In this document: piece by piece, positions 22,923 through 29,052 of the stretch | Layout of the letters: every line of letters begins with the position of its first letter | Position numbering within the stretch: position 1 is the stretch's first letter | Assembly (NCBI GenBank): GCA_963733675.1 | Contig: CAVTET010000004.1 | Coordinates: 416,001 to 480,000, forward strand | Direction: 5' to 3' | DNA from: an uncultured Methanosarcinaceae archaeon | Lineage (GTDB): Archaea > Halobacteriota > Methanosarcinia > Methanosarcinales > Methanosarcinaceae | DNA length: 64,000 nt | Translations under genes and position numbers: made by a program | The notes under the pieces: generated by a model | What the model saw: only the letters and a program-made list of their open reading frames with translations | What the model was told of the DNA's origin: nothing | Database searches by the model: none

Positions 22923-23774
22923 GGTTCCGTTGCAAAAATCCTTTCTAATGATACAATAGAATAAAAAGAAAACCAAAGATAGTAATATGCTATCTAATTC
23001 CTTTAAATGGAAGCATTATGAAGGAGAAATTATCCTATTAAATTTAAGATGGTACTTAAAATATCCATTGAGCTATAGAAATTTAAAGGAAATGATGATA
23101 GAAAGAGGAATTCAAGTTGATCACAGTACTATAATGAGATGGGTGCATCAATATTTCCCTGAGATAGAAAAAAAGATAAGAAGACATTTAAAACTAACAA
23201 ACTATTCGTGGAAAGTTGATGAAACCTATATCAAAATAAAAGGTAAATGGAAATATTTTTACTGAGCAGTTGACTCAAATGGAGATACAATTGATTTCAT
23301 GTTAAGTGCAAAACGAGATAGAAAAGCAGCAAAAAGATTCTTTAAGAAAGCTTTGAGTTCTAATCATAACCAAATTCCAAGAGTAATAACAGTTGATAAG
23401 AATCCAGCTTATCCACCTGCTATAGGTAAACTGAAAAATGATAAAATACTACCTAAAAACGTAGGCATTAGACAAATCAAGTATTTGAATAACATTATAG
23501 AACAAGATCATAGATCTATAAAGCGAATCGTTAATCCAATGTTAGGATTTCAGTCTTTTCAATCTGCTAATAAGACTTTAAAAGGAATTGAAGCTATGAA
23601 TATGATCAAAAAAAACAAGTCAATAATCTAAATTACTCTATTCTTAATGAAATCAAATACATTAATAAATTGTTTGGTATAGTTTTATAATGTTAGTACA
23701 TTTCCTTGAATATTTTGATTTTTATTTATTACTTATAGATTTACATATTTTTTTGAATTTTTTGCAACGGAACC
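22923..23774 (+). mobile_element. IS6-family element, copy 2 (transposase interrupted)
   Basis: Same TIRs; TGA at 23263-65 splits the ORF (22987-23265, 23299-23631); the 3' end is frameshifted. Confidence 0.95.
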
Positions 23775-24460
23775 TCAGAATCTACGATACATAGATTTAG
23801 ACCCAAAAACTCTGCATAATTAAAATATAGTGTCTTTTAAAGAAAAAAAATAGTATTTCTAGTAAACGGATATCTAATACATGCTCATTTGCAGTATGAC
23901 GGAGCAGGTGGTATGGGTTCGAACTTTGAAAAAATAGATTATTATAGGACTCTAACTTCATAATAAATTAGATATTGATGTTACTGCTGACGATGCACAC
24001 ATCAACAGTATTTACCCCATTCTGGGAAAACTATTTTTCTGTCCCCCAAATAGTGTTAGTTTTACTACTTTACATATTTTTTCATAATGTTCTAGGTATT
24101 CTAAGTATGATTGTAGTTTAGTTTAATTAGTTCCAAATGTTCAGGAGCCCTAGATTTTCTATGAGTCCCATAAGCTTCAGGAGTCATAGAGCAGTAACCC
24201 TTTCTTATTTCAAATGGAACTAGGAAATTTCGAGATTTTAAGATAAACATTGTGCATAAGATTATGCCATTTTAAAAATATTGCTTTAAAGTGTAGATCG
24301 ATAAGAATTTCAATAAACCGATTTTTTAATAAACAATTTATATATTATCCATAGTATAGAACTAATTTATGGGTTCATAGTAATCTGCTATATAATCTAT
24401 TACAATAACTCATGGGCATAACTAAGAATCTATAGGTTTTAAAATATGGAAAATTGAATA

Positions 24461-24652
24461 AACAAAGATGCAAAAATACTTGTTTACTGCTTTAGTAGAA
24501 ACAGAAGTTCTGTTGCAAGTCAAATGTTGGTACAGTCAGGTTACAAAAGAGTCTATAATATGCAAAGCGGTATCATAAAATGGGTAAATGCAAGGTATCC
24601 AGTTGTAATTGACCCTATATTTTGGACAATTAATTATCCAAATGTAGTGTAA
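24461..24652 (+). pseudogene. C-terminal remnant of a rhodanese-like protein
   Basis: NKDAKILVYCFSRNRSSVASQMLVQSGYKRVYNMQSGIIKWVNARYPV; no start codon or N-terminal half. Confidence 0.75.
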
Positions 24653-25207
24653 TAAAGTATTGATAGTTGGTTAAGCTATAATTTCCAGGACAGATTTTTG
24701 GCAGCTCATTTAATTAATTTGTTGAGCTGATCACAAAACAATTGGGCATTGTACCTAAAGTTCTGCAAATTTTTATTGGCTCTATTTCTTTTTCTTTCCC
24801 TTATCACAAAAATTTAGTTCTGTATCAACTAAATAGGATGAAATTACTACATTGGAAAGTTCTTTCACCAAAAAATAGGATTAATCGTTTTGCTGATATG
24901 GAAATCTTCATACAATGCATGTGCATCTTAGGGTTAAGATAATTCAAATATTTGGACCAAAATAGAAACCAGTATTAAAATCAACAGTCTCAATATTCAT
25001 CGGTATAAATGATAACTTGATAACAGGAAACAAATAGGTGAATTAATTCCAAGTGTTCCCTCGGTTCCATATGTTCTAGAAGTACCAGAAGCTCCATGAG
25101 AAATAAATCAATACATTTTTTATTTTTTGTGGAATTTCAAAGATGAAGAGATTTTAGCCACAAAATCTGTGTATTTAAAAATTATTGATTTGATTAGACT
25201 CGCGAGC

Positions 25208-25346
25208 TAATAAAAAACATTATTAATATTTAATTGTTTTTTAATTGTAAAAAATATTATACGGGATTATTTTTTGGTTATAAACTATTTTTCATAGAAT
25301 TAATTTAAAATAATTACAAAGATAATTGTATACTGTACCACAATAC
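25208..25346 (+). promoter_or_regulatory. AT-rich promoter-like module, copy A
   Basis: Colinear with the reverse complement of 32803-32940 and with 26554-26688 and 39479-39585; core ATTAATTTAAAATAATTAC. Confidence 0.65.
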
Positions 25347-25397
25347 GACATAACGAGTTGATCGAAAAAAAAATCAGAAATGGAAAAATTGAATTAT

Positions 25398-25492
25398 GTG
25401 GAAGATGTCGGTCTTATTTTGAATTAAATATACTACTGGAGTATAATATTCAAAGTGACTGTATAGGGTAACGGTAGAGCCAGCTCTTCCAC
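25398..25492 (+). ncRNA. Candidate structured RNA (three-way junction), copy A
   Basis: P1 GUGGAAGA/UCUUCCAC, P2 UUAUUUUGAAU/AUUCAAAGUGA with apical UAUACU/AGUAUA, P3 ACUGU/ACGGU; covaries with 26388-26485. Confidence 0.55.
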
Positions 25493-25631
25493 TAATCCAT
25501 CAAATCTTTTTAATGTGTTGATTTGGTATAATGTATAATTTGAATCAAAAATAAGCATATGACAAGGTAATCAAAATTTTTCAAACTTCGCAGGATTTAC
25601 CCAATTTTTTAGATAGCTTTTAGGCCAAAAA

Positions 25632-26021
25632 ATGAAATTTGTAGCAGGGGAGAGTACATTAGGAAAAGAAAAGGGAGAAAAAGAAATGGGCAACGATGAT
25701 GATATATTAAAGTCAAGAAGTAAAGAGAAAATAATTAAGGAAGCAGAACCTAATGTTACAATCGAAAAAGTGACAAAATTAACGAAAAAAGCATTGGAAC
25801 AAAAAACAGCGAGTGATATACTTACTTTTGTACAGAATTTGGATGATTTTGAGGAAGCTGATATCTTCTTAACACTATACATTAAGGCATTAAACAATAC
25901 ACTTGCATCCAATAAGGAAAATTATAGAATAGATGAAAATGGGGTAAGAAAAATAATCGCTGAAACAGACGGAAGATTCGTATATGGGGAAGAAATATGT
26001 GGGGGATGTGAAGAAGAATAA
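25632..26021 (+). CDS. Hypothetical acidic protein; start may be ATG 25686
   Basis: 129-aa ORF with GGAGA upstream of 25686 and a C-terminal CGGC; no family recognised. Confidence 0.6.
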   Translation: MKFVAGESTLGKEKGEKEMGNDDDILKSRSKEKIIKEAEPNVTIEKVTKLTKKALEQKTASDILTFVQNLDDFEEADIFLTLYIKALNNTLASNKENYRIDENGVRKIIAETDGRFVYGEEICGGCEEE

Positions 26022-26072
26022 AGAAATGAATGAATTATAACCACATTATCTGCTGAATATAATGGATTTACA

Positions 26073-26222
26073 GGTTCTGTTGCAAAAATAATTTTACTGC
26101 CTTTTGGGGCTAGACTTATTGTTTTTTTGTATCATTATTGATCTGTTTAGAGCATATAAATATCTCATTTGTGATGTTTTTCACTGGTTTTGTAAAGTAG
26201 CCAGATTTTTTGCAACAGAACC
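26073..26222. mobile_element. 150-bp MITE with IS6-type TIRs
   Basis: GGTTCTGTTGCAAAAA ... TTTTTGCAACAGAACC; non-coding interior homologous to 15113-15258. Confidence 0.9.
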
Positions 26223-26387
26223 CCTATTAATAGATCCAATTTTAAAGTCAACTCCGTTATTAAAACAATGCATCTTGAAATCTGTAAATTTTGATTTGCT
26301 CTATACCACTTTATTATTTTCAAAAATTTTAGATTTTTATGAAAGATTATTTTCTGCAAAATCAAGCATGTTAACAATTGGAAGAAG

Positions 26388-26485
26388 CTTGGAAGAGTTG
26401 TCCCTACTGTAGGTTCAGTTACAGTTATTCCGAAAATATAAGCCCAATAATATATTAATTCGAAATATGGCCAACATCTCCCAAG
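26388..26485 (-). ncRNA. Candidate structured RNA (three-way junction), copy B
   Basis: P1 CUUGGGAGA/UCUUCCAAG then GUUG/CAAC, P2 UAUUUCGAA/UUCGGAAUA, P3 ACUGUA/UACAGU. Confidence 0.55.
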
Positions 26486-26553
26486 TAGCCCACCATGGCT
26501 TTTAATTCCCTGCTCTTTACATTACACTCTTTCAGGTCTGTTGGTAGTAGATG

Positions 26554-26790
26554 CAATACTACAATGCATAATCATCAACGTAATTATTTTAAATTAATTA
26601 TACAAAAAATAATTTCTAAACGAAAAACAATACTGGGTGATATTTTTCACAATCGAAAAACAATTTGAAATTTATAATTTTTCTATTATGCTTAAAATAT
26701 TTTAGTGCAACATAATTTTTATTTAAAAACTATTTTTCGTATAATTAATTTAAAATAATATATGAAAGTAATAAGCATTATAGTTACAAT
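26554..26790. promoter_or_regulatory. Back-to-back promoter-like modules B (26554-26688, minus) and C (~26690-26790, plus, upstream of Hsp20)
   Basis: Both carry TTTA.AAA.TATTTTT.GTATAATTAATTTAAAATAAT, in opposite orientations. Confidence 0.6.
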
Positions 26791-26874
26791 AAATTGTTTA
26801 TCTGAGCATCAAAAGTAATTTATTGCAATTACAGATTAAATATACTAAATGTACTAATATTTTGGGGTAATATA

Positions 26875-27168
26875 ATGGTATTCAATAGATCACCGGCTAT
26901 ATGTACATATCCTGATGAGAAATGTGAAAACTTGATAATTGAAGTAGTCCTTCCAGGAGTCGAAAAGAAAGATATTTCTTTCAAGATTGCTGAAGACGTT
27001 TTTTATGTAGATGCTAAGAAAGAAGGAATTAGGTATTGGGACAGTTATGTGCTCTGTTGCCCAGTAGACTCGGAAAAAGCAGTTGCTAAATACTCAAATG
27101 GCATGCTTAACGTCACAGTACCTTATAAATTACCCTTAGAAAAATTAACTGAAGTTAAAATCGAGTGA
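26875..27168 (+). CDS. Small heat-shock protein (Hsp20/alpha-crystallin)
   Basis: IEVVLPGVEKKDI ... AVAKYSNGMLNVTVP. Confidence 0.85.
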   Translation: MVFNRSPAICTYPDEKCENLIIEVVLPGVEKKDISFKIAEDVFYVDAKKEGIRYWDSYVLCCPVDSEKAVAKYSNGMLNVTVPYKLPLEKLTEVKIE

Positions 27169-27847
27169 TGAAGTTAAAATCGAGTGATGTAGTGATTTAA
27201 GAAAAAATCTATAGTTGCTTAACTATAATTTTATTCATTTGTTAATCGGATCCCAAAACTCAAAATAAAGTAGTGTACTGAAATGTCTATAGAATCTACG
27301 AAGGAAGAAATTCAGAGTTGAAAATGATCATTAATCATTGATAAACTACGCATGACCAATAAGGCAGATGTGATATATAAATGGATGAAAATAAACCTTC
27401 AAAAGTTACTACTGGTTTTGGAATCTCTTTGGGGGTATGATCAAAAAGTCGGAGAACGTGGACCTGTTCTTATGTAGGACATTCATCTACTCTCGAAAGT
27501 AGTATATCTTCATTAATATTTTCGTTTTCCATGACTTTTTCATTTCATGAGAAAATAACCCATCACGAGCATAATCAATCTGTATGGTCTTCATTAAATT
27601 TTTCATCTCTTCATAAAGGTTTATTCGATTGAAGTAGAAAACAATTACTTAATACTTTAAGCACCCAAACTTAGAATCTTGTACTTGAGATTTCGAATCA
27701 CACAAATTAGATGTTAAGTTAATGGTATACTTTAGACGATTGCATGCAAAATGAAGTACATTTTTAGAAAACTACAGTGTTTCTCTACTAGCCGGAGAAG
27801 CTTGAACAGGCAACTATCCTAGCTTAACGCTATCCTAGCTTAACGAG

Positions 27848-28948
27848 ATGATAATCATGGCAGGATACCTGGATCTTTTTTCACAGTATCAGATGGGCGA
27901 TTTCACGTTGCCAAACCGCATAATTATGGCACCGATGACCCGCAGTAGGACAGGTTATGCTGACATCCCGGTCTCACTGATGGCCACTTATTATGTGCAG
28001 AGAGTCTCGGCTGGCATGATTATCACCGAGGGCTCACAGGTCAGCCCTCGGGGTGTGGGCGTCATGCATACGCCAGGCATATACTCTGCAGCACAAGTTG
28101 CTGGCTGGAAGAAGGTGACGGTTCCAGTTCACAAGGCTGGAGGTAGGATTTTCATCCAACTATGGCATGTAGGGCGAGTTTCCCATCCAGACTTCTTGGC
28201 TGGCGCTCTTCCTGTCGCACCATCAGCGCTACCTGTTGAAGGCTTTGTCCATACACCCGCTGGGAAAAAACAAATTTCAATGCCTAGGGCCCTGGATAGA
28301 GATGAGGTACCGAACATCATCAGGCAGTTTCGGCAGGCTGCGGAGAACGCCAAAGACGCCGGCTTCGATGGTGTAGAAATCCATGGTGCTAACGGCTACC
28401 TGCTGGACCAATTCTTGCGGAGCGGGTCCAACAATCTAACCGATAAGTACGGTGGCAACCTTGAGAGCCGGGCCCGTTTGCCTCTTGAGGTCACGAAAGC
28501 TGTCATCGAGGTATGGGGTGGTGACCATGTAGGCTACCGTATCTCCCCGCATAATAGCGACCATTCTATGTCGGATGCCAATCCACAGGAGACCTTTTCC
28601 GATTTCACCAAAGAATTGAGCAAAACTGGCCTAGGCTACCTTCATATAATTGAGCCCATAGGAGGTAGAATGGAGTTCGTACCACCAGAGGCACGGTTTG
28701 GTCCTAGTCTGCGTAGGATCTTCGAAAGGACGTTAATACTGAACGGCGGCTATGACCTACACAGCGGGAACGAGGCTATTGCCAGAAGAGAAGCCGACAT
28801 GATAGCCTTTGGAATACCGTTTCTGGCTAATCCGGGCCTTCCAGAACGTTTTAGGCAGAATGCACCGCTGAATGAGCCAGAATTGGATACATTCTACGTT
28901 GGTGGCGCGAAAGGATACACGGATTATCCGTCCCTGGTCTATAGATGA
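27848..28948 (+). CDS. Old yellow enzyme / alkene reductase (NemA-like)
   Basis: NRIIMAPMTRSR, QLWHVGR, GFDGVEIHGANGYLLDQF and GYTDYP. Confidence 0.95.
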   Translation: MIIMAGYLDLFSQYQMGDFTLPNRIIMAPMTRSRTGYADIPVSLMATYYVQRVSAGMIITEGSQVSPRGVGVMHTPGIYSAAQVAGWKKVTVPVHKAGGRIFIQLWHVGRVSHPDFLAGALPVAPSALPVEGFVHTPAGKKQISMPRALDRDEVPNIIRQFRQAAENAKDAGFDGVEIHGANGYLLDQFLRSGSNNLTDKYGGNLESRARLPLEVTKAVIEVWGGDHVGYRISPHNSDHSMSDANPQETFSDFTKELSKTGLGYLHIIEPIGGRMEFVPPEARFGPSLRRIFERTLILNGGYDLHSGNEAIARREADMIAFGIPFLANPGLPERFRQNAPLNEPELDTFYVGGAKGYTDYPSLVYR

Positions 28949-29052
28949 CATGTCTCAAAGCATAGGGTTCGGTTGCAGGAATGATATTTCATTAGTTTGC
29001 TACCATAATTATTTTTTTTATTCGTATTGATCTGATGATGGAATTAATTTTG

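Follow-up and report, generated by a model that had tools for sequence, protein, structure and literature searches.

A separately promoted three-way-junction RNA family of Methanosarcina, a candidate for a new archaeal regulatory RNA

The 64,000-nucleotide stretch of DNA considered here, henceforth the window (positions 416,001 to 480,000 of contig CAVTET010000004.1, assembly GCA_963733675.1), comes from an uncultured Methanosarcinaceae archaeon and contains, on either side of a small gene, two related units that point towards each other: copy A, at 25200-25640 on the forward strand, and copy B, at 26230-26700 on the reverse strand. An original prediction, made from the letters of the sequence, had seen in these units a duplicated three-way-junction RNA with compensatory substitutions, a micro-ORF (open reading frame) and a shared promoter, in convergent copies around an orphan gene. 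The analysis that followed it up places copies A and B in a structured, separately promoted RNA family, which is multi-copy in almost all of the Methanosarcina genomes searched.

Two facing units and their relatives

The homology of the two segments, first claimed by inspection, is borne out by an alignment of 476 columns with a mean column identity of 78%, and by a pair of inverted arms of 123 nucleotides (nt), at 25215-25337 and 26560-26682, which a repeat search of 24500-27500 recovers as 76% complementary. The RNA domain of copy A occupies 25398-25492 (+; 95 nt), with a closing stem, P1, that pairs 25398-25410 with 25481-25492 around a long hairpin, P2 (25414-25457), and a short one, P3 (25458-25475); that of copy B occupies 26389-26484 (-; 96 nt). 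The helices that had been quoted are all present in both sequences, namely the closing stem (GUGGAAGA/UCUUCCAC in copy A, UUGGGAGA/UCUUCCAA in copy B), the long hairpin (UUUUGAA/UUCAAAG and UUUCGAA/UUCGGAA) and the short hairpin (ACUGU/ACGGU and ACUGUA/UACAGU). Folded separately, both copies give the same three-way junction, at -29.8 kcal/mol for copy A (z -3.70, with 1 of 200 shuffles equally good) and at -32.0 kcal/mol for copy B (z -5.49, with none of 200).

To call this arrangement a duplication was correct as to the homology of the copies, but it understated their number. The 383 nt of copy A, used as a query, have 47 matches in the 3.92-megabase (Mb) genome to which the window belongs, most of them restricted to the first 110-130 nt, that is, to the promoter module, while the RNA domains by themselves are found by blastn at 14-15 places. 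A covariance model, R1, built from an alignment of the 13 full copies of this genome, finds 16 places, 13 of them at 97-119 bits (99.8 for copy A and 97.5 for copy B) and three at 42-48 bits, which are partial, shortened copies. The repeated unit opens with the promoter module (about 105-110 nt), continues with a leader (55-90 nt) and the domain, whose length differs by single bases among copies, and closes with a tail that is conserved and contains a T-run; in a few cases (c5, c15) the copy has no promoter and lies directly 3' of a gene. One copy (L032, G000:C4:210944-211060) carries a tandem duplication of 20 nt in the 5' strand of P2 and scores 98.4 bits even so.

Applied to other genomes, R1 finds the domain genus-wide, the complete genomes searched giving 3-11 matches each. 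A match was present in 23 of the 24 other genomes of a first draw from the same genus, with 1-13 matches each, in 33 of 34 other genomes of that genus in a family-wide draw, and in all six genomes of a sister genus (g23); none was found in 110 genomes of fourteen other genera of the family, nor in 16 genomes from other families of the order. A collection of species-representative genomes was also scanned with a pattern of 20 nt taken from the short hairpin, and this returned 51 stretches, whose titles read Methanosarcina, Methanosarcinaceae or Methanosarcinales with five exceptions: one metagenome-assembled genome (MAG) under the label Bacillota, two under the label Methanobacteriota, and two stretches that come from a metagenome chromosome. 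On one contig of a Methanosarcinaceae MAG (locus L128, contig CAVRNH010000081.1, 315-5688), five copies of the domain follow each other on the same strand within 6.5 kilobases (kb), four of them belonging to a subtype that has diverged, with numerous compensatory changes in P1. The genome of the window, with a G+C content of 35.7%, shares with its relative G019 an A+U-rich version of the domain, while the versions of other species are richer in G+C.

Selection on the three-way-junction fold

Covariation was measured by counting pairs, with shuffled and slid controls, in place of R-scape. In an alignment of 41 sequences, 94.6% of the cells pair and 15 of the 26 pairs change on both sides; with 97 sequences, 84 of them distinct, 95.1% of 2165 cells pair and the number of pairs that change on both sides rises to 19 of 26, in 154 cells. 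None of 500 shuffles of this larger set reaches any of five measures, a control that overstates significance inasmuch as related genomes are not independent, and when the 3' partners are slid by 1-3 columns pairing falls to only 32.5-45.8%. Because the covariance-model alignments had been fitted to the model, the test was repeated without it: MAFFT followed by RNAalifold, with 86 sequences, returns the identical three helices with 92% of the cells paired, adds apical extensions of P2 and P3, and displays, at one pair of P1, UG 33 times, UA 21 times, AU 19 times and CG 8 times. The compensatory substitutions first noticed between two copies thus belong to a covariation that beats both types of control over 84 distinct sequences and persists in an alignment blind to structure, and this shows that the three-way-junction fold is under selection.

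The strand can be settled in the same way. Pairs of the G-U and U-G type, from which the orientation had been proposed, are common in P1 and P2, and folding energy agrees with them: in 83 of 86 sequences the strand read from the promoter module gives the better fold of the two (mean -38.8 vs -29.1 kcal/mol for its complement), as it does in 10 of the 13 full copies of the window's own genome. The RNA strand is the one that is read from the promoter.

Both copies of the window also hold the micro-ORF that had been described, of 15 codons in copy A (25380-25427, +) and 13 codons in copy B (26455-26496, -), overlapping the domain and ending in the 5' strand of P2. One might imagine, then, a coding or dual-function element, in which this short frame is translated under the control of the structure. 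The frame does recur in 6 of the 13 full copies of the genome, and some of its differences fall at third positions (TAT/TAC, GTC/GTT, GGT/GGC), but it is absent from the seven others and from both G019 copies, and only two of 72 copies from other genomes keep it. Moreover, no ORF that starts with ATG overlaps the domain in 43 of 87 sequences, the remainder vary in frame and length, and the single-base differences in domain length are at odds with a conserved reading frame. Small ORFs on the reverse strand and downstream likewise differ in frame among copies, as judged by eye. The micro-ORF is therefore real in the window without being a feature of the family, and we regard a coding role as highly improbable.

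Promoters, transcripts and neighbouring genes

The promoter module of copy A (25215-25322, +; nhmmer match C4:441215-441322) consists of three spaced T-tract boxes followed by a TATA-like box, TTTAAAATA, at 25304-25312 (+), which we take to be a putative TATA box of the archaeal kind. It is homologous to that of copy B (26575-26681, -; nhmmer match C4:442681-442575), with which it forms the inverted repeat. From the spacing, transcription of copy A is predicted to start about 25-30 nt past the TATA box, giving a 5' leader at 25334-25397 (+); the leader of copy B, at 26485-26563 (-), aligns with it, its putative start being placed from the TATA box at 26585-26593 (-). Copy A ends in a pyrimidine-rich, single-stranded tail (25493-25511, +) with a run of five T (25507-25511), likely to act as a leaky archaeal terminator.

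These traits extend to the family. A TATA-like box, with spaced T-tract boxes upstream, is present in all full units, some 70-120 nt before the domain (most often 71-73 nt in other species), and the block around it is conserved, together with the leader, upstream of nearly all copies, highly so in other species, where most leaders hold one to three motifs of the UGGG(G) type. In ordinary Methanosarcina genomes, both hairpin loops read UUGGGGGA.

The promoter-like module that the two copies had been said to share is real, yet it is not private to the RNA. A third copy, at 26699-26759 (+; 26713-26759 in the repeat search) with a TATA-like box at 26749-26757, stands back to back with the module of copy B and is the putative promoter of an Hsp20 gene (26875-27168, +; Pfam HSP20, E 6.6e-06; RNA-library contigs at 26845-27126), and the whole genome has 109 nhmmer matches to the module, before unrelated genes. 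Several Hsp20 paralogs are found behind such modules, along with other leader-like RNAs and small signal-peptide proteins (e.g. MLKQSS..KKVLAILL.., and tails rich in His or in Gly/Tyr). A second leader-like repeat (..TTGTACATTGTAGCTTAAAGTGAACAGATAAAGAGT..GGTAGGATGTGTGAGTA..), with no obvious ORF, follows many of them, for example at C5:336024, C3:130273, C1:172728, C12:9920 and C1:984404, and may be another family of non-coding RNA. In the ordinary Methanosarcina genomes G013, G041 and G007, a promoter query of 76 nt has three, two and eight matches, respectively, all eight of G007 adjoining RNA copies, so that the spread of the promoter seems confined to the low-GC lineage, where it looks like a case of promoter propagation. 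Putative mobile promoters have been described in bacteria, and the likeness, one module of about 105 nt before many unrelated genes, is evident, the difference being that the present module is of the archaeal TATA type.

Downstream of copy A, a frame of 129 codons (25632-26021, +) appears in the list of ORFs of the window. The contig of a near strain, from an RNA library, has one nucleotide inserted after 25646, so the true start is probably the ATG at 25686, a few bases after a GGGAG motif, which would give a protein of 111 amino acids (aa). This gene had been termed an orphan, and indeed it has no Pfam match; its own genome, however, contains two paralogs (C1:868735-869028, 69% identical, and C3:127195-127486, broken), and homologs occur in 4 of 58 other genomes of the genus, which makes it a member of a small family restricted to the lineage. 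About 1 kb away from the C1 paralog there is a promoter module (C1:870000, -) with an Hsp20 paralog behind it, and the gene of the window likewise has Hsp20 as a neighbour. Across the stop codon of the window's Hsp20 gene there is a perfect tandem duplication of 19 nt, TGAAGTTAAAATCGAGTGA, in two copies (27150-27187).

Between the 111-aa gene and copy B, and outside the RNA family, lies a miniature inverted-repeat transposable element (MITE) of 150 nt (26073-26222), with a perfect terminal inverted repeat of 16 nt, GGTTCTGTTGCAAAAA, and 76 blastn matches in the genome.

Other genomes show a different neighbour: 17 of 72 copies lie 56-110 nt upstream of a conserved ORF of 46 aa, whose best Pfam matches are zinc ribbons, below the cut-offs, and which has no homolog in the genome of the window (best E 0.08). 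The four-cysteine stand-alone small protein sORF_06 (PMC11456600) is probably not the same protein, the best copy of G013 being followed by no more than the remnant described below. A run of at least five T within 30 nt of the domain follows 29 of the 55 copies from other genomes that have no zinc-ribbon ORF, vs a single one of the 17 that have it; in the window's genome 9 of the 13 full copies have such a run. In G013, the best RNA copy is followed by a mere remnant of 13 codons, from which it appears that the RNA outlives the ORF. It follows from the split in T-runs and from this remnant that the domain is found both as a gene standing alone and as the leader of a messenger RNA (mRNA).

As to transcription, a stretch of 2.3 kb has matches in metagenomes of soil, peat and wetland and in six runs labelled as RNA, four of which were aligned to it; the contigs of copies A and B come from two runs of one study, while runs X17 and X19, with a small share, contribute short pieces only. 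Two contigs (25367-26037 and 25356-26196) cover the domain of copy A, its tail and the whole downstream ORF, and two others (26223-26547 and 26223-26551) cover copy B. With a few percent of their positions changed relative to the window, they come from a near strain, and they are strandless assemblies with unmapped ends, from which a single transcript is not provable; where they end, at 25356/25367 and 26547/26551, is no more than weakly suggestive of 5' ends. Little or no RNA depth is seen over the promoter modules (25154-25307 and about 26617-26693) or over the region 27156-27300, a gap that we do not use as evidence. The contigs of copy B depart from the window sequence at 26223, which is the edge of the MITE, and the convergent layout around the gene, present in the window as described, is thus probably specific to this strain.

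We may now consider the domain as a cis-acting 5' leader, riboswitch-like or protein-bound. The junction would respond to a ligand, to temperature or to a protein and so control whether the U-run is read through, or whether the following gene is translated, the copies without a gene being decayed or orphaned leaders. The contigs that join copy A to its ORF, the T5 run placed between the two, and the 17 copies before the zinc-ribbon ORF, 16 of them without a nearby T5 run, all speak for it. A constant association with one type of downstream gene, in the manner of riboswitches, was however not found, since 55 of the 72 copies from other genomes are without the zinc-ribbon ORF and, among 16 in the window's genome, only copy A has a close downstream gene on the same strand. 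Furthermore, the genes that follow the RNA bear no relation to each other (the 111-aa family and the zinc ribbon, the latter having no counterpart in the window's genome), the RNA is retained in G013 where the ORF has decayed, and no known riboswitch family of Rfam 15 matches. The most conserved bases sit in the hairpin loops and the stems, and the junction strands are a few bases long, which leaves little space for a ligand pocket. A purely cis-acting leader is, in our view, rather unlikely.

The multiplicity of the promoter brings forward another explanation, that of a selfish or passively duplicated unit of about 400 nt (promoter, leader, domain and tail), the structure of which would serve its own spread or stability. 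Copy numbers that range from 0 to 17 per genome would be expected of such a repeat, and it would equally account for the clusters of copies (L128, L099), for the three truncated copies of the window's genome and the one with an internal duplication of 20 nt, for those without promoter lying directly after genes, and for the presence of the module at 109 places. Yet no terminal inverted repeats bound either unit in 24500-27500, where the sole long inverted pair is copy A against copy B, and the possibility that the segment is itself a MITE fails on this ground, the true MITE at 26073-26222 illustrating what a positive result would be. A link with an IS6-like element was also considered and rejected, the nearest of its 128 loci in the genome lying 0.6-65 kb from the 16 copies; in the window, the transposase of this type (22987-23631, split into ORFs of 92 and 110 aa) is 1.6 kb upstream of copy A. 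Above all, the compensatory changes maintain three helices across species, unlike what is seen in plain repeats, and one copy holds its position before the same ORF in many species. We find the selfish repeat decidedly unlikely.

A possible function, and the place of the family among known RNAs

Catalogued families do not account for the domain. A search of 23000-29000 against Rfam 15, with E up to 10, gave six weak matches, all below gathering score and none of them on either domain; among these, TLS-PK5 (26540-26593, with 20 bits where the gathering score is 70) falls on the edge between leader and promoter of copy B. Four loci from other species, with E up to 1, gave one match only, to the unrelated U6. 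The absence of hammerhead and C/D-box signatures, noticed from the start, agrees with these searches. The hammerhead core is made of CUGANGA, GAAA and a cleavage triplet; no Rfam hammerhead model matched, and in the alignments the gap between P2 and P3 is 0-1 nt, which leaves no GAAA strand. C/D-box small RNAs (sRNAs) have C, D', C' and D boxes and a K-turn, and the snoRNA-type matches lie only elsewhere (27544-27617 and 23087-23160), with E of 3.5-9.9, below their gathering scores. With the three-way-junction ribozymes and riboswitches of Rfam (hammerhead, TPP, purine), the family has in common three helices in about 100 nt; it differs from them in its short junction strands, its conserved loops and neighbour genes without a common function. 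The original prediction, that of an archaeal family of sRNAs or cis-regulatory leaders not described before, is supported by the spread of the model, the covariation, the lack of an Rfam match, the absence of terminal inverted repeats around the unit and the RNA contigs.

The nearest precedents are in the same genus. The M. mazei RNAs sRNA154, sRNA162 and sRNA41 are reported to be intergenic, to have promoters of their own and to be conserved in Methanosarcina, and their stem-loops are proposed to meet their targets, which is a parallel with the present family (PMC3177094, PMC5867862, PMC3510493). Among them, sRNA154 has one locus, between MM3337 and MM3338, is 130 nt long, is drawn with two stem-loops and has the NrpR operator GGTA-N6-TACC in its promoter (PMC3177094, PMC5867862). 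The family considered here, in contrast, is multi-copy (1-17 copies per genome, with 16 matches in that of the window) and forms a three-way junction; the window has no match to the NrpR operator, and the 4.14-Mb genome G013 carries copies at 0.32, 1.74, 2.23 and 2.27 Mb, beside other genes than those of that single locus.

Two of these copies, at 2.234 and 2.269 Mb, are close in position to the loci given for spRNA23 and spRNA24 (MM1838/39 and MM1870/71) in a preprint (bioRxiv 10.1101/2025.10.28.685009, section 3.1), and we rejected this identification on the flanking genes, which differ: in G013 they are an IS1 fragment with rhodanese/MBL, and adenine deaminase with a connectase-like gene and pirin, respectively, with neither ferredoxin nor vanillate decarboxylase at either place. 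No description of the family was found in the literature searched, which did not extend to the lists of sRNAs from the 2009 transcriptome of M. mazei or to supplementary coordinate tables; its transcripts may already be numbered, although not as a family, in M. mazei catalogues.

The explanation that we favour, and hold to be reasonably probable, is that of a family of trans-acting sRNAs with leader variants, in Methanosarcina and one sister genus. Each gene combines a predicted archaeal promoter of its own with a short leader and a three-way junction of 95-110 nt, in which two hairpins, one long and one short, rise from a closing stem of 13 base pairs that has a single bulge; a short pyrimidine-rich tail follows and, usually, a U-run where transcription can stop. 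The junction would serve as a scaffold from which both hairpin loops, as well as the tail, are presented to a trans partner, either a pyrimidine-rich RNA or an RNA-binding protein. Copies that stand alone would end at the U-run and act as sRNAs in trans, whereas a weak or absent U-run would allow the domain to double as a 5' leader for the gene that comes after it. Copy A could be such a leader for the 111/129-aa gene, and copy B a stand-alone gene, the convergent position of which would be incidental.

Several observations weigh against this explanation. Both the partner in trans and any target are putative. In the genome of the window the loops are degenerate, that of P3 being mostly UUUGGGC-like and the tips of P2 variable, so that the idea of loop presentation leans mainly on other species; within the window's genome, too, covariation is thin, with 3 of 26 pairs when it is taken by itself, to which the relatedness of the genomes behind the shuffle control must be added. 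The strandless contigs have already been mentioned, and the one that runs through the ORF of copy A, together with the 17 copies before the same small ORF, would fit a purely cis role equally. Finally, the variable copy number, the clusters and the truncated copies are a pattern that also fits a selfish repeat.

A bolder variant may be drawn by analogy. In the bacterial decoy RNAs of the Csr/Rsm type (CsrB, RsmY/Z), which are encoded by multi-copy genes, a short G-rich motif is repeated in hairpin loops, and the present family recalls them by its G-rich motifs, repeated in loops and leader, and by the occurrence of the same structure in the 5' leader of mRNAs. We might thus have before us a Csr/Rsm-like archaeal decoy system, independently invented in methanogens. 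Stand-alone copies would display two to five motifs of the UGGGG(G)A type, two of them on the tips of a rigid junction, and these would soak up one RNA-binding protein or a pyrimidine-rich RNA end such as the anti-Shine-Dalgarno of 16S ribosomal RNA; leader-borne domains would make the mRNAs of the 46-aa zinc ribbon and of the 111-aa gene regulated targets; and in the low-GC lineage the promoter would also have been copied before about a hundred other genes. The motif, however, is UGGGG(G)A rather than A(N)GGA, a three-way-junction scaffold is no feature of Csr/Rsm RNAs, and we know of no CsrA homolog in archaea. We consider this variant unlikely.

To our knowledge, few archaeal regulatory RNAs have been defined as families with a proven fold, most of them being single loci from one transcriptome. 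The RNA family to which copies A and B belong, matching no catalogued RNA family, is a good candidate for a hitherto undescribed regulatory RNA of archaea. The covariance model can be used by annotators to mark an element that is at present left unannotated in Methanosarcina genomes, and the low-GC lineage may, in addition, be a case of archaeal promoter propagation. The family combines compensatory support over dozens of species, multiple copies, a repeated loop motif and two forms, gene and mRNA leader, and its host genus includes genetically tractable model methanogens, M. mazei, M. acetivorans and M. barkeri; with such properties and such hosts, its function is directly testable.

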